From an uncultured Smithella sp. (GTDB lineage Bacteria > Desulfobacterota > Syntrophia > Syntrophales > Smithellaceae): a DNA stretch of 64,000 nt. Shown here one piece after another: positions 13,068-63,168 of this stretch. The notes beneath the pieces are model-generated. The model was given only the letters and a program-made list of their open reading frames with translations, ran no database searches and had not been told where the DNA came from. Location: the NCBI GenBank assembly GCA_964608995.1, contig CAZSQS010000001.1, positions 25,143 through 89,142 of the forward strand. Reading direction: 5' to 3'. Positions within the stretch are counted from its first letter, which is position 1; every line of letters begins with the position of its first letter. The position numbers were made by a program, and so were the translations under genes.

Positions 13068-14990
13068 ATGGGAAAGATTATTGGAATTGATTTGGGCACG
13101 ACCAATTCGTGCGTGGCCATTATGGAAGGCGGAGACCCCACGGTTATCGCCAATCAGGAGGGGAACCGCACCACGCCGTCGGTGGTTGCTATCACGGAAA
13201 GCGGCGAGCGTCTGGTGGGTCAGGTGGCCAAACGTCAGGCGATCACGAACTCGGAAAATACCGTTTACGCCGTTAAACGATTGATCGGCCGGAAATATAG
13301 TTCAAAAGAAGTGCAGTACGACGTGAAGATTTCGCCCTATAAGATTACCGAGGCGACCAATGGCGACGGACAGCTGACGGTCCGCGGCAAGAATTATTCG
13401 CCGGCGGAAATTTCGGCGATGATTCTGACAAAAATGAAACAGACCGCCGAAGACTACCTGGGCGAAAAGGTATCGGATGCGGTCATCACCGTTCCGGCCT
13501 ACTTTAACGATTCCCAGCGACAGGCCACCAAAGACGCGGGTCGCATTGCGGGCTTAAACGTGCTGCGCATCATCAACGAGCCGACCGCAGCCGCGCTGGC
13601 CTACGGCCTGGATAAAAAGAAAGATGAAAAAATTGCCGTGTTCGATCTGGGCGGCGGAACGTTTGATATCTCCATTCTGGAACTGGGAGAAGGCGTCTTT
13701 GAAGTCAAATCGACCAACGGCGACACGCACTTGGGCGGCGAGGACTTCGATCAGCGCGTGATGGATTATCTGGTCAATGAATTCAAGAAAGACCAGGGGA
13801 TCGATTTAAGGAGCGATAAAATGGCGCTCCAGCGCCTCAAGGAAGCGGCGGAAAAGGCCAAGATGGAACTGTCCACCACGATGGAGACGGACATCAACCT
13901 GCCGTTCATCACGGCGGATGCCTCAGGTCCAAAGCACATGAACATCAAGCTCAGCCGCGCCAAGCTCGAATCGCTGGTTGAGGAACTCATTGAAAAAGTC
14001 GCGGGCCCCTGCCTGACGGCGATCAAAGACGCGGGCCTTTCGGCTAAAGAAATTGATGAAGTCATTCTGGTGGGTGGCATGACCCGCATGCCGCGCGTTC
14101 AGCAGAAAGTGAAGGAGCTCTTCGGCAAGGAGCCGCACCGGGGCGTCAATCCCGATGAAGTCGTGGCGGTGGGCGCGGCCATTCAGGGCGGCGTGCTGGC
14201 CGGCGACGTTAAAGATGTCCTCCTGCTCGATGTGACGCCTCTGTCGCTGGGTATCGAAACACTGGGCGGCGTGATGACGCGGCTCATCGAAAAGAATACG
14301 ACGATTCCGACCAAGAAGAGCCAGATCTTCTCGACGGCAGCCGACAATCAGCCGGCCGTGAGCATCCATGTGCTCCAGGGCGAGCGCCAGATGGCGGCGG
14401 ATAACCGCACGCTGGGCCGTTTTGAACTGGTGGGCATTCCGCCTGCGCCCCGTGGCGTACCGCAAATTGAAGTGGGCTTCGACATCGATGCCAACGGTAT
14501 CGTGCACGTCAATGCCAAGGATCTGGGTACAGGCAAAGAGCAGAGCATCAAGATCACGGCGTCAAGCGGCTTGAGCGAATCGGAAATTGAAAAGCTTGTC
14601 AAAGACGCGGAAATGCACGCCGAAGATGACAAACGCCGCAAGGAGCTCATTGAAGCCCGAAACTCGGCAGACTCGCTGGTGTATTCCGTTGAAAAGAACG
14701 TGAAGGAATTCGGCGACAAGGTGGATGCGGCGGAGAAGGCAAAAATCGAAGAAGCGATTGCGAAAGTCAAAAAAGCGCTTGAGGGCGATGATCTCGACGC
14801 CATCAAGAAGGCACAGGAAGAGCTGATGAATGTCTCGCACAAACTGGCCGAGGCCATGTATGCCAAGACCGCAGGCGGACCGGGCGGACCGGGCGCCGCA
14901 GGCGGTGCTCAGCCGGGATCAGACGAGCAGGCCGCAGGCAAAAAAGACGACGATGTTGTCGATGCGGATTTTGAAGAAGTGAAAAAGTAA
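13068..14990 (+). CDS. dnaK: molecular chaperone DnaK (Hsp70)
   Basis: [32 protein letters not shown] and the C-terminal [18 protein letters not shown]. Confidence 0.98.
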
Positions 14991-15006
14991 GGCTGTCTGT
15001 TTTTCA

Positions 15007-15041
15007 AGCCCGAAACCATCCAAACGGTTTCGGGCTTTTTT
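15007..15041 (+). terminator. intrinsic terminator after dnaK
   Basis: Stem AGCCCGAAACC / GGTTTCGGGCT with an 8-nt loop, followed by a T6 run. Confidence 0.8.
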
Positions 15042-15096
15042 ATGTATCGACCCGTTGGGCAAAATATTATACAATCCCCGTCCATTGGGGGGGGGC

Positions 15097-15696
15097 ATGA
15101 GGCATATTCGCTTATCGCACAAAAGTTATATCGTTTTTGCAGTCATGGGGTTGGTGCTGGCGGCGTGCAATGCACCCGCTCCGGCCAGCGACGTCAAGGC
15201 TCTAAATAGCGCCGCGCCTGGTTGTCCGGCGGTGACGCTGCTGACGGATAAAGATTTCTTTCCGGCGCTCCTTGACGCCATTGACGGGGCCGAGCGGGAA
15301 ATATACATTTCCATTTTTTCCTTCAAGGCGGGGGTCCATCCCCGAAGTTACCCGGATCGGATCTTAGCCCATCTGAAAAAGGCGGTAAGCCGCGGCGTGG
15401 AGGTCTTCGTCATTCTTGAGGTGGCTGATGATCCGAAAAATTCACTCACGGCGCAGAATCTGAAAACCAAAGCGCTGTTGGAGGAAGGCGGCATTTGCGT
15501 CTATCTGGATTCGCCGAAGAAAACCACCCACACCAAAGCCATGGTCGTGGATCAAAAAAAAGTTTTTTTGGGCAGCCATAATTTTACCTCTTCGGCGCTC
15601 AAGCATAATCATGAACTATCCGTTTTAATTGAACAGCCACAGCTTGCGCAAAATATCCGCGATTATATGCTGAAAATCATTAAGGAGGCCAAATGA
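15097..15696 (+). CDS. phospholipase D-family (HKD) lipoprotein
   Basis: HKD motif HTKAMVVDQKKVFLGSHNFT. Lipobox LAAC after the Met at 15097 (the ORF track starts at 15055). Confidence 0.75.
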   Translation: MRHIRLSHKSYIVFAVMGLVLAACNAPAPASDVKALNSAAPGCPAVTLLTDKDFFPALLDAIDGAEREIYISIFSFKAGVHPRSYPDRILAHLKKAVSRGVEVFVILEVADDPKNSLTAQNLKTKALLEEGGICVYLDSPKKTTHTKAMVVDQKKVFLGSHNFTSSALKHNHELSVLIEQPQLAQNIRDYMLKIIKEAK

Positions 15697-17054
15697 GATC
15701 CTGCCGTTTTTGCCGCGCTATCTTTTTTCTGTTTTTGATGGTGTCATTATGCAGTTGCGCCACGATGCACTCCCGCACACAAGTCATCACGCCTGCCCCT
15801 TCCGAATCCCGGGACCAGGCGGTTGCAAAACCGGAAATTTCGACGCCTCAGCCGGGGGAGAAAGGCGAGGCCGCCCCCCAGAAAGACCAGGCGGCCGAAG
15901 GCGACAAGGCCGACGATGACGAAGAAGAAAAGGCCGTTTTACCCACCGGCCCCTTGCCGGACCGATGGGCGGTCGGTTGTATTCTTCCCCTGACCGGCCG
16001 TTTTGCCGAGGAAGGTAACAAGGCGCTCGATGCGCTGTTGCTCTCAGCGGAGACGTTTAACGTGCGCTATTCCACGCCCTGGAGAATCGTTGTGGCCGAT
16101 TCCGGCGAATCTCCCGAGGGGATGCAAAAAGCCATGGCCTATCTGGCCGATTCGGCCAATGTCATGGGCATTCTTGCCGTGGCCGGGTCAGCCGACGCCG
16201 AAGGCGCAGCGCGGGAAGCCGAAAAGCGCAAGATTCCCCTGATTCTGATTTCATCGAAAGAGGGCCTGACTGAGGGGCGAAGCTATGTGTTTCAGCATTT
16301 TCTGACGCCGACGCAGCAGATGCAGGCGCTGTCCAGATATGCACTGGACCAATTGAACATTGCCATCTTTTCCATTTTATATCCGCGGGATGACTATGGC
16401 GAAGAAATGCTTCGCGCCTTTACCCGGGAAATCGAAAGAGTGGGCGGAAAAATCAACAAAGCCGTTCCTTATGAAAAAACACAGACGGATTTTTCAGAAC
16501 AGATCAGTCAGTTAATCGGCCGGAAACTCGATACGTCGAAGAAGAGCTACGCGACAACCGAAGAAGCCAAGGCAAAGATTTCTGTGGATTTTGAAGGCCT
16601 GTTCATTCCGGACTCGCCCCTTCGGGTCAAGATGATCGCCTCTCAGCTGGCGTTTTATGATGTCAAAGGGTTTCAGTTTTTGGGGACCAGCCTGTGGCAG
16701 GCGCCGGAACTCACCCAAAAAGGCGTGGAATATATTGAGGGCGCCGTGTTTACCGACAGTTTTCTCCGAAACGGATTTCTCCCGGAGACCAACGATTTTG
16801 TCGATATCTATTACACCGCTCACCGTCGGGAACCGGAAAAAATCGAGGCGCTTGCTTACGACACGATGGAGATTGTGCTGGGGATTCTCGAAGATGAAAA
16901 CGTGAAAAGCCGGGAAGATTTTATCGGGACGCTTCGGGCCGTTGAGCTCTTCCAGGGCGCGACCGGCAGCGTCTATTTTCGCGGAAGCTCAGTGGCCCAG
17001 AAAAACGCCTTTTTAATTAAAATTCTAAACGGCAAGCTTGAACAGGTGAGATGA
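15693..17054 (+). CDS. type-1 periplasmic-binding-protein-fold lipoprotein (Leu/Ile/Val-binding / LpoA-like)
   Basis: Signal peptide with Cys lipobox, acidic low-complexity linker, then a PBP1-like domain (GPLPDRWAVGCILPLTGRFAEEG..). Confidence 0.6.
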   Translation: MRSCRFCRAIFFLFLMVSLCSCATMHSRTQVITPAPSESRDQAVAKPEISTPQPGEKGEAAPQKDQAAEGDKADDDEEEKAVLPTGPLPDRWAVGCILPLTGRFAEEGNKALDALLLSAETFNVRYSTPWRIVVADSGESPEGMQKAMAYLADSANVMGILAVAGSADAEGAAREAEKRKIPLILISSKEGLTEGRSYVFQHFLTPTQQMQALSRYALDQLNIAIFSILYPRDDYGEEMLRAFTREIERVGGKINKAVPYEKTQTDFSEQISQLIGRKLDTSKKSYATTEEAKAKISVDFEGLFIPDSPLRVKMIASQLAFYDVKGFQFLGTSLWQAPELTQKGVEYIEGAVFTDSFLRNGFLPETNDFVDIYYTAHRREPEKIEALAYDTMEIVLGILEDENVKSREDFIGTLRAVELFQGATGSVYFRGSSVAQKNAFLIKILNGKLEQVR

Positions 17055-17058
17055 GGAC

Positions 17059-17086
17059 GAGGGTAAGAGGTAAGAGGTAAGAGGGA
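17059..17086. repeat. heptamer tandem array (GGTAAGA x3 plus degenerate flanks)
   Basis: Read directly: gaGGGTAAGAGGTAAGAGGTAAGAGGGA, starting 5 nt after the stop codon at 17052-17054. Confidence 0.6.
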
Positions 17087-17319
17087 CGTAAAAGATAAAA
17101 ATAAGTGTTTATCCACGGTGTCAAAATAACATTCTCGCTTGAATATAATTAAATTTTCTGTTGTCTTCCCGGTCTGGCATATGCTGGATAAACATCCGTG
17201 CCGAAGTCTGTTGAAGGCCCAAGGAACCCGTTCAAACAATATTTAAATTACAGACTTTATTGGCATGACAAACGTAAATTCAATGATAAGAACTTGATCT
17301 GGCAACCGGCAACCGCGCC

Positions 17320-18093
17320 ATGAACGCGTACAAGAAAGGTGATCAATTGACATTGGGAAAATCAACTGTATTTGCAAACAAGCAGGGCGTATCCAGCGCC
17401 AATAGCGGCGCTACTGCCTCAAACACCTTGCCGGATGTATGTCTCACGCAGATAGGCAACGCCGTTGTGCCGATTCCGTATTCCAACACCGCCCAATCTT
17501 CCGATCTTAAAGACGGCAGCAAAACCGTTCATGTTGACAAAGCGTCCGCTGCGATTGACGGCTGCTCCTACAGCAAGAGCACCGGTGACGAGGCGGGTAA
17601 CAAAAAGGGGATTATTTCCGGCACAAAAGGCGACAAGGCGGAATTCGGCAACTACTCCTTTGATGTAAAAATCGAAGGCAAAGGCGTATGCCGCAACACC
17701 GACCTTACGATGCACAACAACAGAAATACGATTGGCATGAATTCGGATTCCTCTGCCGATCCCCCGCCCCCCAAAAACCCTCCGCCCCCTAAAACAACAT
17801 TCCGCTTCAAGGTGTTGGAGCACATCTCATGGGAAAATTACGATCCAGACGCAAAATGCTTCAAGCCGGGCGACGCAAACAACAATCCCATCCAAAACAG
17901 AAAATTCAAAATTCGGTTCTCCGACGGCAGCATTCGCGAAGAAACCACGGATGATGAAGGGATTATTGAACTGAAAGATCAGGATGTGCACTCCAAATTT
18001 GAAGTCATTTTTGAACCGGAAGACGCACGTCTCAATAACAAATACTATCTATTCCATCATGCAATCACCCCGCTGGCAAAGATTCTGGAATAG
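17320..18093 (+). CDS. PAAR-like (DUF4150) spike-tip protein with Pro-rich linker and C-terminal TTR/carboxypeptidase-regulatory-like beta domain
   Basis: LPDVC..VPIPYSN..SKSTGDEAGNKKGIISG..FDVKIEGKGVCRNTDLTMHN matches my recollection of Pfam DUF4150. Linker DPPPPKNPPPPK. C-terminal pattern KFKIRFSDGSIREETTDDEGIIELKD..FEVIF. Confidence 0.8.
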   Translation: MNAYKKGDQLTLGKSTVFANKQGVSSANSGATASNTLPDVCLTQIGNAVVPIPYSNTAQSSDLKDGSKTVHVDKASAAIDGCSYSKSTGDEAGNKKGIISGTKGDKAEFGNYSFDVKIEGKGVCRNTDLTMHNNRNTIGMNSDSSADPPPPKNPPPPKTTFRFKVLEHISWENYDPDAKCFKPGDANNNPIQNRKFKIRFSDGSIREETTDDEGIIELKDQDVHSKFEVIFEPEDARLNNKYYLFHHAITPLAKILE

Positions 18094-18128
18094 GCAGCAG
18101 GTCAGCTACGAAAGATTGAGGACATCAT

Positions 18129-20057
18129 ATGGCAAAGAATAAAAACGAACAAAACGACCCCAAAGGCTGCATTCTGAAGTCTCACCTGCCGGTCATGTTG
18201 CCGGGTGTGGATTATCAGATCAGCATCTATCAACCGTCGGTTGTGATGGATAGTCACATGCACGTGATGAGCGGCGGTTGTTCTCCCCTGCCGTTTTTAT
18301 GGAAACAGCTCGCCGATAAAACCGTCTGCGTTATTGAAACCGCCCATTTGTCTCGAGAGACCATAGAAGGCGCGGGACTGATGATTGGGGTGACGGCGGA
18401 TATGGTCACGCTGCAACCGCTTACAGGCGATCAGGTGGACGTTCCCGGTTCTGCAGGCGAAGAAACACAATACCGGCGGCATTCATTCCGGCAATCCATT
18501 CCAGAGAGCAGAAAGTCAACGAAAGAAATCGGTGATGATTTTATAAAGACCCGGTTCAAGGACGCTTGCCATTATCTCCGAAGCGAACCATTCCACCAAA
18601 CGCTGCAAGCAGATGATGAAACCGGACGGATGCCTTTTTTGCTTTGTGTGATCATGCCGATGGACATGGAGTTTGCCCATCTGGACGGCTACTATGGTCT
18701 TAAAATCTATAATGCGGTTTTAAAATATGACAAGGTGCGGCAGGAAAGCAGGGTCGCCCATTACTGGATGCCCCTGCATGGTCGCTTCTTCAAGAAAAAA
18801 CGTGACGAAAAAATATATGATCAAAGCCATGATCCAAATCCGCTGCAGAACGTGAAAATTGACGCGCAACTCACGGACGAATTTGATAAAAACTTAAAAA
18901 ACATTAAAAAATATGGCTTGCCGGGCATTTATTGTGAAGAGAAGGATGAGATACTAAACAGGGTCAGAATTAACGTCAAAGCAACCCCCTGCATTTTGCC
19001 CGATTCCGAAACCCGGCGATACGAATCATGGGAAAAACAATTGCAAAATACGGAACTGGCAATGCTGGCCAACCCCCTGAAGCTTTTTCCTCTGTTTCAC
19101 TACGACCCGAGGCGCTGGCAGGTGGCTGACACTTACAACGATAATCCTTTTACTCAGGTCAGCGGCAGCGGTCTTTATTTGGGGTTCAAGCTTTACACTG
19201 CGCAGGGATACCGTCCCTGGGATATGCGTTTGCCGGTTTTGAGAGATTTCTACCGCCGCTGCCGTACGGGCAATATCCCTATTCTGAATCACTGTACGCC
19301 AGGGGGTGCCTACAGTTTTGACCGGGAACTGTATTATGAATTTTTGCACCAGAATGATGCAGATGATTCCTATGCAAATCAGGAAAAAGCAGACTGCGGC
19401 GGCGACACCTTGAAATACTTTAACGATAACTTTGTCGCACCTGACGCCTGGCGAAAAGTGCTGGACGCTAAAGTCGGAGGAACCAGGCTGTCCGGACTGC
19501 GCCTGTGCCTGGCGCATTTCGGTGGTGGGACGGACGACGGACTTGCATGGTGCAAACAGATTATTCAATTAATGAAAGACTATGACAACGTCTATGCGGA
19601 CATTTCCTCGTCGATGGCTGACGAATCAAAGCATCCCAAAACGAAAGAAAAAAACCGGGACAGATTTAAAAAACATTTTCGGGACGTCGTTTTTCATGAC
19701 CCGGAATTTAAACAGACGCTTCGTCACCGGATATTATTCGGGTCGGACTGGTATATGACGCTTCTGGACCGTGTGGAATATCTGGAGTATTTTAGAGAGA
19801 CCAAGAAATTTCTGGACGATCTCGACACCAGTCTTTGGTTGCGCTTCACACAGGCCAATCCCTACCGATTCTACCGGCTGGATGAGGCAAACCAGATTGA
19901 CCGGATAAAGGAAAATATTATTGACAGAAGGCAGAATAATGAGAAGGTCCAACAAACATTGAAAAGACTAGACAAAGAACAAATCTCCGAAATCGAACGA
20001 GAAGCTGCCTTCATTAGAATAGCCAATAAGCCTTATGTAAAATATGAGGAATCATAA
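18129..20057 (+). CDS. amidohydrolase-superfamily (Amidohydrolase_2-like TIM-barrel metal hydrolase) protein with ~270 aa insertion; candidate cargo effector
   Basis: Metal-ligand pattern in the canonical order: MDSHMHV (HxH) ... GFKLY ... PILNHC ... LCLAHFGG ... LFGSDWY. The coding region is low in G+C. Confidence 0.6.
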   Translation: MAKNKNEQNDPKGCILKSHLPVMLPGVDYQISIYQPSVVMDSHMHVMSGGCSPLPFLWKQLADKTVCVIETAHLSRETIEGAGLMIGVTADMVTLQPLTGDQVDVPGSAGEETQYRRHSFRQSIPESRKSTKEIGDDFIKTRFKDACHYLRSEPFHQTLQADDETGRMPFLLCVIMPMDMEFAHLDGYYGLKIYNAVLKYDKVRQESRVAHYWMPLHGRFFKKKRDEKIYDQSHDPNPLQNVKIDAQLTDEFDKNLKNIKKYGLPGIYCEEKDEILNRVRINVKATPCILPDSETRRYESWEKQLQNTELAMLANPLKLFPLFHYDPRRWQVADTYNDNPFTQVSGSGLYLGFKLYTAQGYRPWDMRLPVLRDFYRRCRTGNIPILNHCTPGGAYSFDRELYYEFLHQNDADDSYANQEKADCGGDTLKYFNDNFVAPDAWRKVLDAKVGGTRLSGLRLCLAHFGGGTDDGLAWCKQIIQLMKDYDNVYADISSSMADESKHPKTKEKNRDRFKKHFRDVVFHDPEFKQTLRHRILFGSDWYMTLLDRVEYLEYFRETKKFLDDLDTSLWLRFTQANPYRFYRLDEANQIDRIKENIIDRRQNNEKVQQTLKRLDKEQISEIEREAAFIRIANKPYVKYEES

Positions 20058-21298
20058 TGAAAGAAAAAATGGTTATGAAGCGGCCGAAAAAGTTTTTCTG
20101 GTACGCTCTTTTTATGTTGGCCGTCGTCAGTTTGTTGTTAACATCTACCGTTTACGGGGGAGGAAAGAATAAAATGGAATATCTGTATGATGTCAATGAT
20201 GCAATAACATTAATCCCGCAGGTTTACAAAATGAACTCAAGTTCAAGCCTGTCCCTGTTTCCCGTGCCTTTTGACAATGCCGTGGGCACTAACGATATTG
20301 CCAATGCCGTCACTATCTTCAGTTTTCCCGGCGGGAAGCTGGGCCAAAATAATTATTTCCGCAGAGCCTTAGACGATATTCAGGGTGGTGGAACGTATCT
20401 GCCGGTGATTGCGCAAGACCTGATCGGTTTCGGCCAGACGCGGGTATTTTATCTTTTCAATTTCAAAACCAAAGCAGCTGAGGAATACCGGATTGTTTAT
20501 TCGATTGAGGAAACCATAGAACAAATCGCCATTGCGGATGCCCAGAGCAGGCGCTTTATTTTTGAGATACAGGAAAATAAAAGAGGTTCGGTAGATGCAT
20601 GGGACTTTACTAACAAATTACAGTTGATTGACTTGTTCACTAAAGAAATTAAACTGCTGAAGAAAATAGACATTGGTGTCGGATCAACATGGGCAACAGC
20701 ATATGACAGAGTTTTCTTGTGGTATTTTAAAAAACAGGAAATGCAGGTTCTTGATATGAACTTGGCGGCATCGAATCATCCTTTGGTGGATGCTATCAAA
20801 CGCGTCAAGGATAAAGTTGATTTTTCACGGTTTGCGCTTCCCGCGATGTTGCCCTTTGCCATACTATATGGCGGCGACTATGGTTCAACATATATAAGCT
20901 GGGGGGATGGCAGAGACAAAACGCCAAAATTGTTAATCAGTGGTATCGATCAGGTTTCATTTTCTCCCGACGGCAAGTGGGTATCTTTCCGAAAGTACAT
21001 CAACTCACAGCAGGAAAGAACCTATATCATGCCCATCTCCGAAAAATACCCTAATTATCTGGGATCGCCGATCCTGTTGATGAAAGATTATTTTAATCCC
21101 AAAAACTGCGCCTGGACAACCAACCCCATCAGCTTTGTCGGGTCAGACAGCAAGCTTCATCGTTGGGAACTCACAAAGGTAGCGCAACGATCAATCATGG
21201 GAGAAGATGCCGACAAATTTGATACATTCCACGACTACATCGTCGCGAAAGATTTAGAGAAGCTGACCAAGGAAAAGAAGCAGGGATTGGGAAAATAG
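20057..21298 (+). CDS. N-terminally membrane-anchored/secreted beta-propeller-like protein (TolB/PD40-like repeat); candidate immunity protein
   Basis: Basic N-terminus plus hydrophobic helix (FFWYALFMLAVVSLLLTSTVYG) and the PD40-like SFSPDGKWVSF. The start overlaps the upstream stop (TAATG). Confidence 0.45.
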   Translation: MKEKMVMKRPKKFFWYALFMLAVVSLLLTSTVYGGGKNKMEYLYDVNDAITLIPQVYKMNSSSSLSLFPVPFDNAVGTNDIANAVTIFSFPGGKLGQNNYFRRALDDIQGGGTYLPVIAQDLIGFGQTRVFYLFNFKTKAAEEYRIVYSIEETIEQIAIADAQSRRFIFEIQENKRGSVDAWDFTNKLQLIDLFTKEIKLLKKIDIGVGSTWATAYDRVFLWYFKKQEMQVLDMNLAASNHPLVDAIKRVKDKVDFSRFALPAMLPFAILYGGDYGSTYISWGDGRDKTPKLLISGIDQVSFSPDGKWVSFRKYINSQQERTYIMPISEKYPNYLGSPILLMKDYFNPKNCAWTTNPISFVGSDSKLHRWELTKVAQRSIMGEDADKFDTFHDYIVAKDLEKLTKEKKQGLGK

Positions 21299-21323
21299 AA
21301 AAACAGGATGCGGGGTTAGGGGC

Positions 21324-22088
21324 ATGAGAATATTACTGACGAATGATGACGGGATTTATGCGAGAGGGCTTTCGGCTTTATATGAAGAACTGTCTCAGGA
21401 GGCCCAGTGCCTGATCGTTGCGCCGGAAATTGAGCAAAGCGCGGTGGGGCACGCCATTACGCTGTTTCGTCCCCTGATGGTGCGAAGCGCAACCAAGGGC
21501 GGGCATTTTTTGGGATACGCGGTTTACGGAACGCCCGCCGATTGCGTGAAGATCGGCATCAAGGAACTGGCGGGACAGCTGCCGGACATGGTCATCTCCG
21601 GCATCAACCGTGGCGCCAACTGCGGCAACAATGTGATTTATTCGGGAACGGTTTCCGCCGCAACGGAAGCGGCCATGATGGGGGTTACGTCGCTGGCCAT
21701 ATCGCTGGATACCCATCAGGAAGCGGATTTTTCCTTTGCCGCCAAAACCGCCCGCAAGCTGGTTCACTTTCTTTCTGAGAATTCCGCGCTCTCGGGCGGC
21801 GCGTTTAATGTCAACATTCCCTGCCTGCCGGAGGATCAGATCCGGGGCGTGAGGGTGGTCCGTCAGGGCAGGGCTCGAACTATTGAATCGTTCGAGAAGC
21901 GCGTGGACCCGCGCGACAATGTGTATTACTGGATGTCGGGCGAGAAGGTGACGGCGGGCCATGATACTGAAACGGACATCGGGGCGCTTGCCGAGGGCTT
22001 TGTGACTCTGACGCCCATTCACTATGATCTCACGCGGTATGATCTTCTGGACTCCTTAAAAAACCTGATCGAAAAAAATATTGAATAG
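21324..22088 (+). CDS. surE: 5'/3'-nucleotidase SurE
   Basis: MRILLTNDDGI, GINRGANxG, YSGTVSAA. Confidence 0.93.
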   Translation: MRILLTNDDGIYARGLSALYEELSQEAQCLIVAPEIEQSAVGHAITLFRPLMVRSATKGGHFLGYAVYGTPADCVKIGIKELAGQLPDMVISGINRGANCGNNVIYSGTVSAATEAAMMGVTSLAISLDTHQEADFSFAAKTARKLVHFLSENSALSGGAFNVNIPCLPEDQIRGVRVVRQGRARTIESFEKRVDPRDNVYYWMSGEKVTAGHDTETDIGALAEGFVTLTPIHYDLTRYDLLDSLKNLIEKNIE

Positions 22089-22278
22089 ATTCCAATAGAA
22101 AAACATCTTTGCCGTGAAGACTGTGGCAATGACTCACATCTGTCCCGTTTTCTTGTCCCACGACGGGACAGTGTGAAACATGCATGAAACATATTGTTAA
22201 TAAGCCATATTTCGCGTATTTCCCTATAAGATCAAATAAATAATTATATGCCTACGTTAAAGATTTAGATTGTATGAG

Positions 22279-22294
22279 TGGCATATATTGTGCT
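22279..22294 (+). promoter_or_regulatory. candidate sigma-54 promoter (TGGCAT-N5-GTGCT)
   Basis: GG and GC are at the canonical -24/-12 spacing. 47 nt upstream of the 22341 start, in an AT-rich intergenic region. Confidence 0.45.
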
Positions 22295-22340
22295 TTATTA
22301 ATCACCTAACTGACAAAAATAAATTCCCGGGGGTGCGCAG

Positions 22341-22766
22341 ATGATGAAAGAAAAGCATGTTGAAACCGTTATTTCCGGCATCGAACCCATTGCCCTGATC
22401 ATTCGGGATAAATTCAATGAACCCGGCATTCATTTTTTCACCCCTTCAACATTTTCCCAGCAGCTGGCGGCTATGACGCACCCGGCCGGCCACAAAATTG
22501 CCGCGCACGTTCATAATTTTCTGGCGCGGCAGGTGCTATATACACAGGAAGTGCTCATCATCAAAAAGGGAAAAGTGAAGGTGAACCTGTTTACTTCCGA
22601 GCGCGAATTTATCGAGGCCAAAATTTTGGAAACCGGCGATGTGATTTTGCTTTGCGGCGGAGGCCACTCGGTGGAAATGCTTGAAGAAACAACGATGATC
22701 GAGGTCAAGCAGGGGCCATACGCGGGAGACGGAGACAAAACGCGCTTTGACGAGGTTTGCCCATGA
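22341..22766 (+). CDS. cupin-fold protein (WxcM/FdtA-like sugar-nucleotide-associated cupin?)
   Basis: About 140 aa with a beta-rich cupin pattern (HxH..E..G..). Overlaps the aminotransferase gene by 10 nt. Confidence 0.5.
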   Translation: MMKEKHVETVISGIEPIALIIRDKFNEPGIHFFTPSTFSQQLAAMTHPAGHKIAAHVHNFLARQVLYTQEVLIIKKGKVKVNLFTSEREFIEAKILETGDVILLCGGGHSVEMLEETTMIEVKQGPYAGDGDKTRFDEVCP

Positions 22767-23932
22767 TCCCCGTCAACGAGCCGCTTCTGGGACAAAAGGA
22801 AGTGGACTATGTCAATGAATGCCTGCGTACCGGCTGGATATCGTCCGCCGGCCGGTTTATCGAGGAATTTGAAAACCGCTGGGCCGCCTATTGCGACATG
22901 AAATACGGCGTGGCCATGTCCAACGGCACCACGGCCCTTCAGGCGGCTGTCGGCTGCCTTGGCCTCACGCCGGGCGATCGCGTGATACTGCCGAGCTTCA
23001 CGATTATTTCCTGCGCGCAGGCAGTGGTGTATGCAGGCGGCATTCCCGTTTTGGTGGATTGCGATCCGGAGACCTGGTGCATGGATGTCGATGCGCTTCG
23101 CCGGACGGTGGAGCGGGAAATCGGGAAAGGGGATGGCAAGCTCAAGGCGATTATGCCGGTGCATATTTACGGGCACCCGGTGGACATGGATCCGGTGCGG
23201 GAGATGGCCGTAAAATATCAGCTCAAAATCATTGAAGACGCGGCTGAAGTTCATGGCGCAGAATATTTGACCGGACGAAACACGGCCCATCCGCTCTGGC
23301 GTCGCTGCGGCTCGCTGGGCGATATCAGTGTTTTCAGTTTTTACGCCAACAAACTGATCACCACCGGCGAAGGCGGCATGATCCTCACCAATGATCCGGC
23401 GTATGCCGAAAAGGCGCGAAGTCTGCGCAATCTGTGCTTCAAGCCCGAAAAGCGGTTCTTGCACACCGAACTGGGGCATAACTTCCGCCTGACGAATGTG
23501 CAGGCGGCCATCGGGCTTGCGCAGATGGAACGTATTGATGAAATCGTTGCGGCCAAGCGTTGGATGGGGCAGACTTACACGAAATACTTGCAAGATATCG
23601 ACGCGCTGCAACTGCCCTGCGAAAAATCCTGGGCCAGGCAGGTTTACTGGATGTACAGCGTGGTGATTCACGATGGCGTAGGCCTCGATGCCGCCACGTT
23701 TGCCGCAAAGCTCAAGGCAAAGGGCATTGACACCCGTCCGTTTTTTCTGGGGATGCATGAGCAACCCGCATTTTCCGATTTGGGGCTTTTCCAGAACGAA
23801 CGCTATCCGGTGACGGAACGGATCGCCCGTCAGGGGTTTTATCTTCCCAGCGGGCTCACCATTACGGAAGAACAAATTGAACAAGTTGCCGGCGCCGTGA
23901 AAGCGGTTCTGGCTGAACATCGCAAAAATTAG
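22757..23932 (+). CDS. DegT/DnrJ/EryC1/StrS-family PLP-dependent sugar aminotransferase (ArnB-like)
   Basis: Typical N-terminus (PVNEPLLGQKEVDYVNECLRTGWIS) and FSFYANKLITTGEGGM, which carries the PLP lysine. Confidence 0.9.
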   Translation: MPMIPVNEPLLGQKEVDYVNECLRTGWISSAGRFIEEFENRWAAYCDMKYGVAMSNGTTALQAAVGCLGLTPGDRVILPSFTIISCAQAVVYAGGIPVLVDCDPETWCMDVDALRRTVEREIGKGDGKLKAIMPVHIYGHPVDMDPVREMAVKYQLKIIEDAAEVHGAEYLTGRNTAHPLWRRCGSLGDISVFSFYANKLITTGEGGMILTNDPAYAEKARSLRNLCFKPEKRFLHTELGHNFRLTNVQAAIGLAQMERIDEIVAAKRWMGQTYTKYLQDIDALQLPCEKSWARQVYWMYSVVIHDGVGLDAATFAAKLKAKGIDTRPFFLGMHEQPAFSDLGLFQNERYPVTERIARQGFYLPSGLTITEEQIEQVAGAVKAVLAEHRKN

Positions 23933-24009
23933 TGAACACAACGCAAGCAGGATGATTCAAGCCGAAAGGCTTGCGCGAAATTATCTCTGAAACCGTGTGG
24001 AAGGTCAAA

Positions 24010-24795
24010 ATGGAAAAAACACAAACTGTATTCAACGAGTATGCGCGCTATTATGATCTGCTATACCGCGATAAAGACTACAATGCGGAGGCGGACTATG
24101 TCGCCGGGCTGATCCGGCGCCACCTGCCGAAAGCGTCCTCAATCCTTGAGCTGGGCTCCGGCACGGGCAGGCACGCCAGGCTCCTGGCCGAGCGGGGCTT
24201 TGAGGTTTGCGGCATCGAGCGAAGCGCGGAGATGCTGGCCCGGTCGCAAGAGGTGGCCGCGTCTTTTCAAAAGGATACCGGAGAGGACCGTCTGTCGTTT
24301 TTCCTGGGCGATATCCGCACCACAAGGCAAGACAGGACCTTTGATGCGGTGATTTCGCTTTTCCATGTTCTGAGCTATCAGACCACCAACGCCGATGTCC
24401 AGGCTGCATTCGAGACGGCGAGGCATCATCTGACACCGGGCGGGGTATTTGTGTTTGATCTCTGGTATGGCCCGGCCGTGCTCACCGAGCGTCCGGACGT
24501 CCGGATTAAACGGATGGCGGATGAGAAATCCGCCATCACCCGTCTGGCCGAGCCGGTGTTGATTCCCAATGAAAACCGGGTGGATGTCCACTATACGGTT
24601 TTTGTGCGCAATCTCGAGACGAAGGCGATGGCCGAGCTTACCGAAACGCATGCCATGCGCTATTTCTTCGAACCGGAAATAGCCCTGTGGGCGGATAAAA
24701 CCGGGTTTCGGATTTTAGGCGCCGAGGAGTGGCTGTCGGCCAAGCCCATCGGTCCTGATACGTGGGGCGTCTGTTTTTGTTTGCAGGCGCTGTAG
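24010..24795 (+). CDS. class I SAM-dependent methyltransferase
   Basis: ILELGSGTGRHA motif I. Start placed at the Met at 24010, preceded by GGAAGG (the ORF track starts at 23971). Confidence 0.8.
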   Translation: MEKTQTVFNEYARYYDLLYRDKDYNAEADYVAGLIRRHLPKASSILELGSGTGRHARLLAERGFEVCGIERSAEMLARSQEVAASFQKDTGEDRLSFFLGDIRTTRQDRTFDAVISLFHVLSYQTTNADVQAAFETARHHLTPGGVFVFDLWYGPAVLTERPDVRIKRMADEKSAITRLAEPVLIPNENRVDVHYTVFVRNLETKAMAELTETHAMRYFFEPEIALWADKTGFRILGAEEWLSAKPIGPDTWGVCFCLQAL

Positions 24796-24821
24796 TTCCA
24801 GATCAAAAAGAAAGGTTGTAG

Positions 24822-26762
24822 ATGTCGATGAACGAAAGCAAAGAAAGCCAGCATGAGCCGGAAATCAGCGAATCGGGAAACGCGCCTGTTCAGGACTCGG
24901 GCTTTGCAGCGATTTTTTCCTCAAGGCTTTTCGCCCTGGGACTGGCGCTGGTGTCGCTTGTGTTTATTTCATGCTATGTCTTCTTCTTTACGAATTACCA
25001 GGACTTTCTCTACAGCGACATGGGCGGCTTCTGGTGGCGGGCGATAGAGCGCCTCAAGGGCAACACCTTCGAAATAACGCAATACTGGGCCTGGCCGCCC
25101 GGCTACCATATCTTTCTGGCGGAGCTGTTTCGGGTTTTTCTGTGGCTCGGGCTGGAAAGCCTTATCCGTCCGGAAACGCCGCTTGCGATCAATATCCTGT
25201 TGTATGCGGCGTCCGTCTATGCGCTCACGCGCATTTCGGTGCGCTGGTTTAAAAAGCCTCTGTGGGGCGCCATCACCGTGGGGTTTTACATTTTCGGCTT
25301 TCCGGCCTGGTATCTCAATGCGTTTTTGCTTTCCGGCAATCTGGCGCTGCCTTTGCTGGTCATGGCCGCCTGCCTGCTTTATTGCCGCGAGGACTGGCTG
25401 TCGATTGTTTTAGCGGCGGTTCTTTTTGCCCTGGCGTCCTTCGTCCGTCCGTCGGTGGCCCCCTTCGGTCTGGCCTTCGTCATTTATTTTTTCATCCGCT
25501 GGCGCCCAAGCTTTGCCTTTATCGCCCGCGCCGCCGTCTTTTCCGCCATATTTTTTGCGCTGATTGCCCTGGGCATGGCCGAGGTGTCCCGCATCTCCGG
25601 GGGGCGGGTGTCAGGCCTGTCCGCCAATGGTGGCCTGGATTTTATGCTGTCGAATTCACGCCATCATCGCGTCGATATGTTTTATCAGGGGTATCATTGC
25701 ACAATTGGATTGCCGGCCCTGGCTTTCAAGCCGGAAAAAGGTTATTTCAAAACGAATGTGCCGTTTTGGGATCAGGCGTATTACTATCGGCTCGGCTGGG
25801 AGCATATCCGGCATAACCCCTCGCGGCTGATCAAGAATTTTGAACATGTCTGGGACCTGTTTTTTTCGCCGATGCTGCCTTCCAGAGAAACCCCCGGCTA
25901 CAAGTTTTTCCGTCCGGCGTGGGATATCTTTAAATTTCTGATGTTTCTGTCGATGGGCCTTTACCTGTGGTTTGCCAGGCGTCTTTTGCCGGATGAGCGC
26001 CCGCTTTTCGGCTTTCTGATGAGCGTGATGGGCCTGACGCTCCTGGTGAGTTATCTGTTTTCCGGCGAGCCCCGCTATGGCTATGCGATCATTTTTGTTT
26101 TTTATCTTCTTTTCTTCAAACTGGCCGAAATGCTTTTCGCCAACTTTAAGCGCTGGATAAAGGTATTGCTGATGTATGCCGTGGGGGTTTTGCTTGCCGC
26201 CGGCGGCATTATTGCCATTGTCTATTGGCTGGATTCTTATCCCGCGACGATGAGAATGGATATCCGTCCGCTTGCGACGGCCCCGGGTGGGGAAGTGAAA
26301 CTGACCCAGGACATTTCGCGCCTGTTTTTCCCGTTTGCGCGCCTGGGAGGGATTGCCCATCATGAAACAGGGTATCGTCTGAAAGACCCTGTCCGGGTTT
26401 CCGCACGCACGGAGATGGAGATTGCCGGTTTAGTTCCCCTGAAGATGGATTTTGATATCGTCAGCACCTGGCCTTTTATTGTTCTGATCGATGGCCAGCC
26501 GCTGATTGCCGACGAGAACCCCTATTATGTCGATGGGCCAAAAGCGCCGCCCGATGCCGACAAGGGTTTGGAGCGCAAGGCGTTCATCACGCTGAAACCG
26601 GGGCGCCACACGCTGGAGATGGTTTTTGATTTTGACCGGCTGGAAGGCGGCTATGCCATTAATTATAACTATCCCGGACCCGACGGATGGCTGCACCGTA
26701 AAATGGTGGGTGTCAACTCCGGTCCGGTGAGTTTTCATTTGCCAAAAGGAGCCGCCCCGTGA
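24822..26762 (+). CDS. polytopic GT-C-type membrane glycosyltransferase (ArnT/PMT-like) with C-terminal ~180 aa soluble beta-rich domain
   Basis: More than 10 predicted TM helices, the same architecture as the 27812 paralog (shared GLSANGGLDF / GLGANGGLNF loop), and a non-membrane C-terminal region (26229-26762). Confidence 0.6.
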   Translation: MSMNESKESQHEPEISESGNAPVQDSGFAAIFSSRLFALGLALVSLVFISCYVFFFTNYQDFLYSDMGGFWWRAIERLKGNTFEITQYWAWPPGYHIFLAELFRVFLWLGLESLIRPETPLAINILLYAASVYALTRISVRWFKKPLWGAITVGFYIFGFPAWYLNAFLLSGNLALPLLVMAACLLYCREDWLSIVLAAVLFALASFVRPSVAPFGLAFVIYFFIRWRPSFAFIARAAVFSAIFFALIALGMAEVSRISGGRVSGLSANGGLDFMLSNSRHHRVDMFYQGYHCTIGLPALAFKPEKGYFKTNVPFWDQAYYYRLGWEHIRHNPSRLIKNFEHVWDLFFSPMLPSRETPGYKFFRPAWDIFKFLMFLSMGLYLWFARRLLPDERPLFGFLMSVMGLTLLVSYLFSGEPRYGYAIIFVFYLLFFKLAEMLFANFKRWIKVLLMYAVGVLLAAGGIIAIVYWLDSYPATMRMDIRPLATAPGGEVKLTQDISRLFFPFARLGGIAHHETGYRLKDPVRVSARTEMEIAGLVPLKMDFDIVSTWPFIVLIDGQPLIADENPYYVDGPKAPPDADKGLERKAFITLKPGRHTLEMVFDFDRLEGGYAINYNYPGPDGWLHRKMVGVNSGPVSFHLPKGAAP

Positions 26763-27508
26763 ACCCAGACACGACGACGTCCCCGCCGGTTGCGCTGAGC
26801 ATCGTGCTGCCGACCTACAATGAAAAGGATAACATTATCGTTTTGTTGTCTGAGCTGGAGCAAGTGCTTGCGCTGCCTTGGGAGGCCATTGTGGTCGATG
26901 ACGACTCGCCTGATGAAACCTGGCGGGCGGTGTCGGAATTTGCCGCCACGCGTAAAAATATCCGGCTTTTGCACCGCAAAAATATTCGCGGCCTCACCAG
27001 CGCGCTAAACGATGGTCTGGCGCTCGCGCAGGGAAAATTGGTGATGTGGATGGATGTTGATCTGTCCATGCCGCCGCAAAAGATCCCTGAGCTGTTGCGG
27101 GCCATCGAAGCAGGCGCGGACGTGGCGGTGGGCTCCCGCTACGTCCCCGGTGGCGGCGACGCGCGCGCCGTCAATCCTCTGTTGTCGATCCACTGGCTTT
27201 TGAGCAAAATCCTGAGCATCTTAAGCGGCTGGGCGCTGGGGTGCCGTTTTCGCGACTGGTCCAGCGGCTTTATCGTGATGAAGCGTGAGTTTCTGGAGGG
27301 CTACCGCCTCAGCGGCGATTACGGCGAATATTTCATCGCGCTCATTGTTTATTTAATCAAGACGCGCAAGGCCCGGGTGGTTGAAGTGCCCTACATTCTG
27401 GTCCCGCGTGAGCGTGGCGAATCAAAAACCGCCACCAACCTGTGGGGCTTCATCCGGCGCGGCCGAAAATACCTGAGCATGATCGCCCGCCAGCGTCATA
27501 CCTCTTAG
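26759..27508 (+). CDS. GT2 polyprenyl-phosphate glycosyltransferase (ArnC/DPM1-like)
   Basis: SIVLPTYNEKDNI, VVDDDSPDET, DVDLS. About 250 aa with a C-terminal hydrophobic segment. 4-nt overlap with the upstream gene. Confidence 0.8.
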   Translation: MNPDTTTSPPVALSIVLPTYNEKDNIIVLLSELEQVLALPWEAIVVDDDSPDETWRAVSEFAATRKNIRLLHRKNIRGLTSALNDGLALAQGKLVMWMDVDLSMPPQKIPELLRAIEAGADVAVGSRYVPGGGDARAVNPLLSIHWLLSKILSILSGWALGCRFRDWSSGFIVMKREFLEGYRLSGDYGEYFIALIVYLIKTRKARVVEVPYILVPRERGESKTATNLWGFIRRGRKYLSMIARQRHTS

Positions 27509-27811
27509 GGTAGCCTCCCTTGAAATTCTTTCCATTCTTTGCGTATCCCCGGTAAATAAAAATTGACAAAAACAACAGATGCGGCTAATCAGGCTTCTCG
27601 TTTGACATATATTTGTGGCGTTTTCTTTAGCCACCAACTGAAAACGGAAGGGTTTGCTCGATTGCCGCTCAAATCGAGGGTAAAAGAAAATGGATTTTCT
27701 TGGCAAACAAAAAAGAGCTTTACGGCCGAGGTCTGCTCATGACCGAAGTTCCGGAAAGCGCATGAAACGAAGCGGGGCAGGGCCGCCTGTGGCTTTCCCG
27801 AAGGTCATCCT

Positions 27812-29164
27812 ATGATCCGATCCCTGTGGGGGAAGCTTTCCCGGTTCATTTCGGCCCATCCAGGCTGGTTTCTGTGCCTTTTGTCCTTCGCCGTTACTGT
27901 GGTCTATGTATTTTGCTTTACGGAATACTGGACCTACAACGACGACAGCGACGCGGGCGGTTACTGGTTTCGAGCCATTGCCCGGTTTGAAGGCGAGCAG
28001 TTCTCCGTCGATCAGTGGGTCATCTGGCCGCCGCTGTATCACATTATCCTGTCGTGGCTTTTCTATCCGATCAAGTTTCTCGGGCTCTGGGAACACAACC
28101 TGAGCATCATCATCTTTTTGCAGATTCTCTTGGGCAGCGTCAGCATCTACTTTCTGTATCAACTGCTGGTCCGGATTTTTCATAATAAAAAATTAAGTTT
28201 CGATGTTACCCTCTTCTATGTTTTCACCTATCCGGTTGTGTATCTGTATGCTTTTGTCTTTTCCGAAAATATTGCGCTGCCGCTGTTTATCATCGCGCTG
28301 AGTCTGGTGTTTTGCCATACGGACCAGAAGAAATATCTTTTTATCGCTGGGCTCCTCTTCGGCATCTCCATTGGTGTGCGGCCCGCTTTTGTGCTGTTTG
28401 TTCTTCCGGTGAATTTCTATATTTTTGCCTATCGGCACAAAGGGTGGGCCTGGGGAAACGCCGTGGCCTTCGGCATCGCCTTCACGCTCATTTTTTCGGC
28501 CGTTTCTCTGGAAAACTACCGCATCTCCAACGGCGCGGTGAAGGGCCTGGGCGCAAACGGCGGCCTTAATTTCTTTCTGGGCCAGTGCAAAGTGAGCGAG
28601 GTGAATTCCCGGTTTGACAACTGGTATTATATCATCGGCCCGCCCGGCTATGAGGAATACTATGGCAAACGTGTGTTCAATACCACCCATCCCATGTATG
28701 ATCAGGATTATTTTTATGATTTAGGAAAAAAATGCCTCAAAGAAAGAGATGGCGTGATCTGGGAGAATATCGACAAAATCAAATTTCTGTTCGTGGGGCA
28801 GTTGTTTCCCATTGTGCCGTCGGCGTTTGGCGTCTTGTTCTTTATTCCCATTTTTACGGTGATTATTACAGTTACGGCGATTTTGTCATTTTTCATCTGG
28901 CCGGTTCTCTGGGTGAGAAAATACGACCGCTCGCGGCAAAAAATATTATGGGTCTTCTGGAGTTTTATGTTCCTGACCTTCGTTATGGCGTTTTTCTTCC
29001 ATACCGAGCGCCGCTATATCTACAGCCTGATCTTTGTCATCTACGTCATGTTCTTCAGTGTCTTTGCCATTTCGTGGCCACCGTCGCTGGAGTGGATCCG
29101 TCGCTTTTTAGTTGGATCGCAAGACGGAAAAGATGAAACACAGGACGATACCCGTGCGTCTTGA
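27812..29164 (+). CDS. polytopic GT-C-type membrane glycosyltransferase (ArnT/PMT-like), paralog 2
   Basis: Multiple TM helices. The N-terminal region is collinear with 24822..26762 (YWFRAIARFEGEQFSVDQWVIWPPLYHI vs FWWRAIERLKGNTFEITQYWAWPPGYHI). Confidence 0.6.
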   Translation: MIRSLWGKLSRFISAHPGWFLCLLSFAVTVVYVFCFTEYWTYNDDSDAGGYWFRAIARFEGEQFSVDQWVIWPPLYHIILSWLFYPIKFLGLWEHNLSIIIFLQILLGSVSIYFLYQLLVRIFHNKKLSFDVTLFYVFTYPVVYLYAFVFSENIALPLFIIALSLVFCHTDQKKYLFIAGLLFGISIGVRPAFVLFVLPVNFYIFAYRHKGWAWGNAVAFGIAFTLIFSAVSLENYRISNGAVKGLGANGGLNFFLGQCKVSEVNSRFDNWYYIIGPPGYEEYYGKRVFNTTHPMYDQDYFYDLGKKCLKERDGVIWENIDKIKFLFVGQLFPIVPSAFGVLFFIPIFTVIITVTAILSFFIWPVLWVRKYDRSRQKILWVFWSFMFLTFVMAFFFHTERRYIYSLIFVIYVMFFSVFAISWPPSLEWIRRFLVGSQDGKDETQDDTRAS

Positions 29165-43351: not shown

Positions 43352-43693
43352 CTAAACGTTTTTTATCGCTAATTTTGTTTTCAGAAGGTGCAAGGCCTTC
43401 TCCGAACTCTCTACCGTAAAGCCGATACGTCTTTGCTGATGATACAGATGAAGAATAAATATCACATTCCGGCTGGGTCTTTTTAAATCGCGCGCAAACC
43501 AGGTTTTGAAATCCCCGGACCCATGAAGGCGATATTTGCCGTTTAGTAAGGTTGGTTGTTTCACTTCGAAGCTTTCTATTTCAGACCAGGGGATACGTTT
43601 TTGACCAAAAGGAAAATAGTAGGCTCTGAAGAGAATAGACTCGTTCGTCATTTCAACAAGCTTATCTGAATAAATGACGTCTTCGCGCATCAC
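43352..43693 (-). CDS. hypothetical protein (possibly bacterial PH-like domain)
   Basis: ORF only. Tightly packed 3 nt downstream of the PAS gene. No diagnostic motif. Confidence 0.4.
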   Translation of the reverse strand: MMREDVIYSDKLVEMTNESILFRAYYFPFGQKRIPWSEIESFEVKQPTLLNGKYRLHGSGDFKTWFARDLKRPSRNVIFILHLYHQQRRIGFTVESSEKALHLLKTKLAIKNV

Positions 43694-62867: not shown

Positions 62868-63152
62868 AAAAAACCTTCCCCTTTCAACAACATCTGTTGT
62901 TTTGTATATTGAATTGTTGCGCAGGGATCGAAATCATTAATCCGTATGATTTGAAGCCTGCTCCCCTGTACGCATTTCACCTTTCCGTCCGCGCACTTTA
63001 ACCTCCCGGACGCGGCGCTTCGGTTGGCCTTTTTTGCGTTGGTCGCTTCCGGGAAGCGCCATTTCTTTATTTTCACCTCCTCGCCAGATTTCTTTCGTAT
63101 TTCGGTTTGTTTCGTCATCCGATAAATCATTCCGTTATGCGATACAATATTT

Positions 63153-63168
63153 TGCATTATTTGTGCCA
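63153..63168 (-). promoter_or_regulatory. sigma-54 promoter (minus strand TGGCAC-AAATA-ATGCA)
   Basis: The reverse complement of TGCATTATTTGTGCCA has a perfect -24 TGGCAC and a -12 TGCA at canonical spacing. It points toward the hydrolase genes. Confidence 0.55.

Follow-up and report, generated by a model that had tools for sequence, protein, structure and literature searches.

In a 64-kb stretch of DNA from an uncultured Smithella sp. (the window, whose coordinates are used throughout), three genes form a strain-variable cassette that is very probably a type VI secretion system (T6SS) effector/immunity module. Gene 1 (g1) would provide a spike tip of the PIPY type, gene 2 (g2) an amidohydrolase toxin of the TsxE type acting on peptidoglycan or another periplasmic envelope target, and gene 3 (g3) an exported immunity protein. 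Direct support for this comes from domain identities, an indel between strains, conserved gene order, T6SS linkage and gene fusions among relatives, and homology of the TsxE/TsxI kind. The cassette belongs to a known kind of effector and not to a new class.

The cassette lies between a Peripla_BP_6 lipoprotein gene (15693-17054) and surE (21324-22088), as labelled by Pfam, and the positions of the open reading frames (ORFs) together with these labels agree with the initial annotation, which had placed three co-directional genes there. Contig L076, from a near-identical strain, aligns to window positions 14836-17056 at 99.6% and to 21323-29161 at 95.8%, and its gene order is dnaK'-PLDc_2-Peripla_BP_6-surE, followed by the same downstream genes as in the window. 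Positions 17057-21322 are absent from this contig, and at the empty site the lipoprotein gene is separated from surE by 9 nt. Because this indel matches the interval singled out in the initial annotation almost to the base, the interval delimits a true strain-variable cassette. It is highly likely, in our estimate, that the cassette was horizontally acquired and constitutes a strain-variable T6SS effector/immunity unit. Neither flanking direct repeats of the cassette nor mobility genes within it were found, and integration of the tRNA/att type was ruled out by this lack of flanking repeats together with a count of zero tRNAs in the window. At the left edge of the 4,266-bp insertion, GGTAAGA is repeated three times in tandem (17062-17082), which may be a trace of insertion or recombination. 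The region downstream of the cassette, which is 95.8% identical to L076, includes genes for DegT aminotransferase, methyltransferase and glycosyltransferase, and may itself be a recombination-prone surface-polysaccharide region.

The protein of gene 1 matches PF13665 (Tox-PAAR-like, formerly DUF4150) at E = 1e-35 and 122.6 bits (cut-off 31), with aa 34-139 covering model positions 3-108 of 108, so its initial assignment as a DUF4150 PAAR-like protein stands. Its V-P-I-P-Y motif is found at aa 50-54, and in 35 homologs Y54 is invariant and P51 and P53 are nearly so. Homologs begin at 'MG(K)STVF', which makes translation of gene 1 likely to start from the TTG at 17353 and the ATG at 17320 probably wrong; a Shine-Dalgarno-like AAGGTGA lies upstream of that point. 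Behind the PIPY part (g1N), a linker reading PPPPKNPPPPK leads into a C-terminal domain of ~90 aa (g1C), which is the sole confident part of the AlphaFold2 (AF2) model, with a predicted local distance difference test score (pLDDT) of 80-90 against <50 in the PIPY half. The best local Foldseek matches of g1C are β-sandwiches of CnaB/CnaB2, SdrD-B and SpyCatcher (probability 0.82-0.95, E 0.2-0.5), which we take to share the prealbumin/transthyretin-like fold class, whereas no Pfam match to TTR (TTR-clan) or CarboxypepD_reg was obtained in gene 1. Thus, the transthyretin (TTR) domain that had been proposed for gene 1 persists weakly at the level of the fold class, but not at that of the Pfam families.

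Gene 2 matches PF04909 at E = 3.8e-11 and only over aa 352-584. An alignment of 28 homologs has D41, H43, H45, E181, K354, H388, H463 and D540 invariant, and the AF2 model is a TIM barrel (pLDDT 81, predicted template modelling score 0.86) into which a helical segment (~aa 54-161) and a β-rich one (~aa 195-290) are inserted. Due to this partial match, the invariant ligands and the barrel model, gene 2 is best read as a very divergent but catalytically intact enzyme of the amidohydrolase superfamily, with a full predicted set of metal ligands. Foldseek comparison of the model with PDB gave ACMSD, γ-resorcylate decarboxylase, a COG3618 amidohydrolase and a lactonase at E ~1e-4 and template modelling (TM) scores of ~0.45 (normalised to the target), and a sequence profile of g2 searched against PDB gave nothing meaningful. 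No signal peptide was seen in gene 2. Its N-terminal aa 1-32 have a mean top-residue frequency of 0.61, compared with 0.39 in the insertion that comes next. A defence system or another curated family was also considered and rejected, NCBIfam and PADLOC giving no match for any of the three proteins.

Gene 3 overlaps gene 2 through TAATG, as initially annotated and as confirmed in the sequence. Its product matched no Pfam, NCBIfam or PADLOC model, and its sequence profile found no relative in PDB; the family nonetheless comprises 198 representative clusters at E <= 1e-10 (clusters at 50% identity). In all 33 of the 33 aligned homologs a basic N-region, a hydrophobic stretch and a conserved TTxYGG were recognized by inspection, and we read this N-terminus as a Sec signal or signal anchor, which would place the protein in the periplasm. 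S303, P304, D305, G306 and W308 are invariant in the family, PD40 matches are sub-threshold in 26 of the 33 homologs (best E 0.0046), and two long repeat proteins match the gene 3 profile only at ~267-312, 12 to 21 times. A whole β-propeller, as the initial annotation had read gene 3, is plausible, although only one recurrent blade signal points to it. One homolog (P0145, 652 aa) is fused to ankyrin repeats.

A genome scan gave 68 loci that encode relatives of g2, and with the window-identical contig L001 added there were 69. A single-sequence search placed g3 downstream of g2 in 55 of these 69 loci, and the family profile raised this number to 60. A homolog (P0075) is also encoded by Geobacter sulfurreducens. 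Upstream of g2, g1N and g1C were found in 29 and 28 loci, respectively, all of them from Desulfobacterota (Smithella, Syntrophaceae, Geobacter, Desulfuromonas and Pelotalea). A reverse look-up from one g1 homolog returned g2-g3 downstream in 5 of the 5 places shown, which are closely related contexts.

Among the relatives, the boundary between carrier and cargo is not fixed. In seven loci g1N and g1C are separate ORFs (L016, L017, L019, L023, L025, L029 and L033), in three g1C is fused to g2 (L019, L026 and L030), and all three parts, i.e. DUF4150, g1C and the amidohydrolase-2 domain (AH2), are joined in one protein in L021, L031 and L044 and in proteins P0004, P0012, P0013 and P0095. Moreover, a canonical PAAR domain, LysM and AH2 form one protein in L040, Hcp is fused to AH2 in L061, and OmpA, PG_binding_1 or LysM modules are fused to AH2 in L037, L045, L051, L054 and L059.

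The neighbours of these genes point to the T6SS. Families checked with Pfam were VgrG, DUF6484, DUF2169, TssB, TssF, TssK and TssM, and clustering alone added ClpV-like, TssA-like and TssE-like genes. Markers (VgrG, TssB/E/F/K/M, TssA-like, ClpV-like and DUF2169) were counted in the 40 loci whose upstream sequence extends over 8 kb or more; within the fetched flanks, VgrG was present in 15 of the 40, mostly upstream and on the same strand, and any T6SS marker in 23. The locus L079 reads TssC-Hcp-VgrG-DUF6484-DUF2169-…-g1-g2-g3, and the reverse look-up from the g1 homolog extends it by -g2'-g3'-g2''-g3''. Homologs of genes 2 and 3 are thus tied to injection-system genes, as the idea in the initial annotation required, in that they recurrently follow DUF4150, VgrG, DUF2169 and T6SS core genes; its effector/immunity reading likewise gains from the conserved g2-g3 adjacency, this T6SS linkage and the fusions of the g2 domain to DUF4150, PAAR and Hcp. 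Of the two contractile systems it had offered for delivery, the neighbours and the Hcp fusion favour the T6SS but not an extracellular contractile injection system (eCIS).

In relatives, g3 genes also occur in tandem, and there are arrays of 5'-truncated g2' genes in which every copy is followed by a g3 of its own (e.g. L002 12560-20033; L078-L082); the truncated genes begin at ~aa 166 and lack the HxH strand. Identities of g2 and g3 to the window are correlated with r = 0.94 over all 36 pairs; for the 15 g1-bearing pairs, r = 0.88 for g2 versus g3, against 0.52 for g2 versus g1N. Such a correlation would fit a cognate pair whose members evolve together, with a carrier that is better conserved.

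The closest characterised precedent is TsxE (LysM and amidohydrolase-2) with TsxI, encoded by MXAN_5572/5571 of Myxococcus xanthus downstream of vgrG2; genetic work has validated the two as an effector-immunity pair of the T6SS (Troselj et al. 2018, PMC5801462). TsxE-intoxicated cells round up, and the N. exedens homolog of TsxE carries PAAR (PMC5801462). A review from 2023 gives no additional mechanism for TsxE, and literature pairing amidohydrolase or PF04909 with T6SS, DUF4150 or Geobacter held nothing relevant under those pairings. By phmmer, g2 matches Corallococcus LysM-AH2 proteins at E = 2.7e-44 (L063) and 9.4e-44 (L069), and in L063 a VgrG gene lies 2.5 kb upstream of the LysM-AH2 gene. 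The g3 profile, which was built without myxobacterial sequences, matches the ORFs downstream of the Corallococcus genes at E = 3e-11 and 4e-11. Because of these two sets of matches, g2 and g3 are taken to be distant members of the TsxE/TsxI type. The Corallococcus relative of g2 has 768 aa and starts with MKNYTVQDGDT, and the primer-encoded start of TsxE is METYVVKDGD; the TsxE primers had no DNA-level match at the Corallococcus loci, as expected for a different genus. The initial annotation had regarded an amidohydrolase fold as lying outside the known effector classes, which does not hold, since TsxE/TsxI had been validated earlier and g2/g3 appear to be distant relatives of that pair.

Both systems have an amidohydrolase-2 toxin domain, an immunity gene directly downstream, linkage to PAAR or VgrG, and the cell wall or periplasm as the suspected target, and a D-x-H-M-H-x-x-S-G-x-C motif is common to g2 and the Corallococcus proteins of the TsxE type. 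In contrast, identity between g2 and the TsxE type is only ~24-35% in the best tblastn segments, g2 lacks the LysM of TsxE and is tied to a dedicated PIPY carrier with a β-sandwich rather than directly to vgrG, the window cassette is unlinked to T6SS genes, and g3 has a clear Sec signal (by inspection).

Other known systems share parts of the layout. In the characterised PIPY examples known to us, such as the TseV effectors, the toxin is fused to the PIPY domain. The cassette instead encodes its toxin separately, and a small β-sandwich forms the C-terminus of its PIPY protein. Gene 1 has the full PF13665 domain and PIPY motif of A. tumefaciens Tde2 and S. bongori TseV1-4 (PMC11883445), the motif having been defined, and the DUF4150 domain renamed, by Sachar et al. 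2025 (PMC11883445). As in PIPY systems with DUF2169, relatives of gene 1 sit downstream of VgrG and DUF2169, whereas in the window neither is found beside gene 1. VgrG1-TTR/Tle1 of enteroaggregative E. coli (PDB 6SJL) likewise has a small β-sandwich on a spike component ahead of a separate enzyme effector gene, but 6SJL ranks first for g1C only at E = 0.12 and probability 0.13, and there is no match to a TTR-family profile. The arrays of truncated g2'-g3' and tandem g3 genes in relatives recall the Rhs and contact-dependent inhibition (CDI) polymorphic toxin loci; unlike these, the window has a single complete copy, and in the truncated g2' genes of relatives a catalytic strand is missing from the one enzyme domain, rather than a whole toxin domain of its own. 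More distantly, a PIPY protein with a β-domain precedes a phospholipase D (PLD)-type gene, with Sel1-repeat genes downstream (L083), and another follows VgrG and DUF6484 and is itself followed, two genes on, by a Zn-dependent phospholipase C (L085). A PIPY carrier with a β-domain ahead of a separate enzyme gene thus appears, from these sequences, to be a general layout.

In the mechanism that we propose, the PIPY domain of gene 1 would cap the VgrG spike with the help of DUF2169, and the proline linker and g1C would hold the separately encoded g2 cargo. Coupling to g1C may occur through the conserved, predicted-disordered N-terminus of gene 2; since fused versions join that segment to g1C, it is the likeliest handle. 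Having no export signal, gene 2 would be fired into neighbouring cells on the spike and, as a presumed metal-dependent hydrolase, would most likely attack peptidoglycan, or else another periplasmic envelope component. Gene 3 would be exported by Sec to the periplasm of the producer, where it would neutralise toxin arriving from sibling cells. VgrG and the DUF2169 chaperone would be supplied from elsewhere in the genome. The cell wall is suggested as the most likely target by the OmpA, PG_binding_1 and LysM fusions in relatives and by the export signal of g3. We offer only tentatively the further idea that the TsxE-type barrel may perform an envelope-damaging reaction unlike those of known T6SS toxin classes, for example peptidoglycan cleavage or deacetylation at an HxH-Lys-His-His-Asp metal centre, in which case g1C might be a portable docking domain that lets an orphan PIPY tip work with a non-cognate VgrG/DUF2169.

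A number of results weigh against the interpretation of the cassette as a working T6SS module with a wall-directed toxin. In the 64-kb window, tblastn with 13 neighbour families of relatives detected no VgrG, DUF2169, Hcp or Tss gene, in line with the initial annotation, and all 605 neighbour ORFs of the 68 loci gave no T6SS match in the window. A cognate DUF2169 has been reported to be necessary for a PIPY domain to form a functional spike with VgrG (PMC11883445). Hence the orphan position is the one unusual feature of the cassette, and with no adjacent DUF2169 its deployability in the host is unproven. Many Fibrobacterota g2-g3 pairs have no T6SS marker within 10 kb, shared phylogeny accounts for part of the correlation between g2 and g3 identities, and the TsxE link uses Corallococcus genes of the same architecture as stand-ins for the M. 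xanthus proteins. In addition, Pfam recognises neither LysM nor any different peptidoglycan-binding module in gene 2 itself, and the structures closest to it are decarboxylases and lactonases, not peptidoglycan hydrolases, at low TM-scores.

Since no T6SS gene lies nearby, the cassette would have to use VgrG and DUF2169 from elsewhere. A second PIPY protein, P0347, has a longest contig of 234,483 bp, as do the window's own proteins, and occurs on short contigs from the same sequencing runs. Its contigs read VgrG'-DUF2169-KS-like-PIPY, followed by a 504-aa HExxH protein and a lipoprotein, and this VgrG-DUF2169-PIPY cluster is probably on the same contig as the window. Given the cluster, the organism very probably has a T6SS spike locus able to serve gene 1 in trans, which bears on the question of an injection system in the genome raised by the initial annotation. 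In silico, none of the conditions by which that annotation could have been refuted was borne out. In a complete Smithellaceae chromosome, an orphan g1-g2-g3 unit exists beside a VgrG-linked copy (L003 versus L015). The P0347 contigs form a second T6SS cargo locus, probably of the same organism, whose content in order (L071 1-6914, also L072-L075) is a VgrG C-terminus, DUF2169, a KS-like protein, P0347, the 504-aa protein with a HEMGH zinc-peptidase motif, a 191-aa lipoprotein, and proteins of 122 and 457 aa.

The explanations that compete with ours differ in how much of it they give up. With the same delivery, the toxin could act on something other than peptidoglycan in the periplasm or envelope, for instance a metabolite of the periplasm, the head group of lipid A or of a phospholipid, or a lipid-linked precursor, and even a non-hydrolytic reaction such as decarboxylation is conceivable. 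The fold matches to ACMSD, γ-resorcylate decarboxylase and lactonases and the missing peptidoglycan-binding module speak for such a target, many PF04909 enzymes decarboxylate, and we know of no peptidoglycan hydrolase of the amidohydrolase fold. However, LysM, PG_binding_1 and OmpA-like modules have been fused to AH2 repeatedly, in five lineages, and TsxE-intoxicated cells round up (PMC5801462), so that we hold this alternative to be rather unlikely. Another possibility is a stranded or 'reserve' module that the host does not fire and whose benefit would be resistance, conferred by gene 3, to the toxin of neighbours, or a stock for recombination. The need of PIPY for a cognate DUF2169 and the 64 kb devoid of T6SS genes would suit this idea, as would the fact that the only other PIPY protein seen for the organism, P0347, is 43% identical to g1 over the domain; against it, the three ORFs are intact, catalytic residues are conserved, ribosome-binding sites look good and a promoter-like site is present, and similar unlinked g1-g2-g3 units recur, among them the one on the complete Smithellaceae chromosome, where a VgrG-linked copy is found as well. 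This makes a stranded module improbable.

Two further explanations question the T6SS itself. PAAR-type tips also occur on other contractile tails, and with no T6SS gene in the window delivery by an eCIS, a tailocin or a phage tail could be imagined, but the neighbours of relatives are T6SS-specific (TssB, TssC, TssF, TssK, TssM, Hcp, VgrG and DUF2169) and one relative is an Hcp fusion, which leaves such delivery very improbable. Still less credible is that genes 2 and 3 are an ordinary metabolic enzyme and its periplasmic partner, next to a PAAR-like gene by chance: PF04909 proteins are mostly metabolic enzymes, and some Fibrobacterota pairs have no visible T6SS neighbours, yet AH2 is covalently fused to DUF4150, PAAR and Hcp, relatives contain immunity-gene arrays and truncated cassettes, the cassette is strain-variable, and TsxE/TsxI is a validated precedent (PMC5801462).

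The features of the cassette are listed in Table 1. G+C contents are 48.6% for g1, 47.2% for g2 and 43.3% for g3, compared with a mean of 53.9% (standard deviation 3.8) over the window's remaining 56 ORFs, corresponding to z-scores of -1.4, -1.7 and -2.8, so only g3 is a clear outlier. The contrast in G+C with the flanks that was initially noted is real, but these ORF-wide values make it milder than the earlier counts on single lines of sequence implied. The spacing between g1 and g2 is 35 nt, not 36 nt as annotated, and a GAGGA ribosome-binding site precedes g2; the ribosome-binding sites of the cassette genes look good, and all three ORFs are intact. Between g3 and surE, no terminator-like site was found on the + strand.

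Table 1. Features of the cassette in window coordinates.
Feature	Position	Strand	Basis
Strain-variable cassette, whole module, 4,266 bp	17057..21322	+	No counterpart in contig L076
Promoter-like site TTGGCA-16-AATGAT upstream of gene 1	17260..17287	+	Consensus scan only, 9/12 matches
Gene 1 (257 aa), PAAR-like (DUF4150/PIPY) T6SS spike-tip protein with C-terminal extension	17320..18093	+	PF13665 match
PIPY/DUF4150 domain of gene 1, aa 34-139	17419..17736	+	Pfam
Proline-rich linker of gene 1 (SADPPPPKNPPPPKTT region), aa ~143-160	17746..17799	+	Translation; kept in homologs
g1C β-sandwich of gene 1, aa ~159-247, presumed cargo-coupling domain	17794..18060	+	AF2 model, fold matches
Gene 2 (642 aa), probable PF04909 effector of TsxE type, without signal peptide	18129..20057	+	Pfam, AF2, fusions in relatives
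Predicted-disordered, conserved N-terminus of gene 2, aa 1-32, candidate docking segment	18129..18224	+	pLDDT <50
D41-x-H43-x-H45 putative metal-binding motif, first barrel strand	18249..18263	+	28-homolog alignment; strand from model
Gene 3 (413 aa), putative exported immunity protein, TsxI-like family	20057..21298	+	TAATG overlap with gene 2, family profile
Predicted Sec-type signal peptide/signal anchor of gene 3, aa 1-~35, to conserved TTxYGG	20057..20161	+	Inspection
PD40-like blade motif in gene 3 (FSPDGKW), aa ~296-335	20942..21061	+	Sub-threshold profile matches

Several observations were made beside these subjects. Elsewhere in the window, two small ORFs on the minus strand (43355-43693 and 62843-63232) have a low G+C content of ~42% (z ~-3.1) and may be foreign. 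In 22 loci (L005, L007, L016, L022, L023, L025 and others), proteins weakly matching β-ketoacyl-synthase (PF00109) occur in the flanks of the g1-type gene. They lie 1-5 kb upstream of it, in most cases with DUF2169/DUF6484 on one side and the PIPY gene on the other, and are often paired. Just upstream of g1 in seven loci (L016, L019, L023, L025, L026, L029 and L033) is a gene for a 385-aa protein with an HEMSH motif and a TDNDG β-domain motif; the 188-aa ORF after it (represented by L026 8589-9152) begins with a hydrophobic stretch that resembles a signal peptide. Neither has a Pfam match (coordinates of the pair are, e.g., L023 6958-8112 and 8093-8692), and together they look like a second effector/immunity pair. 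In the Smithella loci L078-L082, the g1 homolog is directly preceded by a DUF559 (endonuclease-like) gene of 154 aa and by one of ~790 aa whose sole match is a faint one to HEAT_2.

As a T6SS effector/immunity module, the cassette extends the amidohydrolase-fold effector type far beyond TsxE/TsxI of M. xanthus, which is its only validated pair and whose biochemistry is uncharacterised, since the relatives span anaerobic Desulfobacterota (Smithella, Syntrophaceae, Geobacter and Desulfuromonas), Fibrobacterota and Myxococcota. In these relatives three T6SS carriers (PIPY, PAAR and Hcp) bear the AH2 domain, to which peptidoglycan-binding modules are often attached, and this variety of carriers and fusions therefore yields a concrete, testable hypothesis on the target of TsxE-type toxins. 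A previously unannotated immunity family, of ~200 clusters at 50% identity, is also defined. Finally, the natural pair of strains with and without the cassette would be a model for the movement of such cassettes and for the use of spike parts in trans by orphan PIPY modules.

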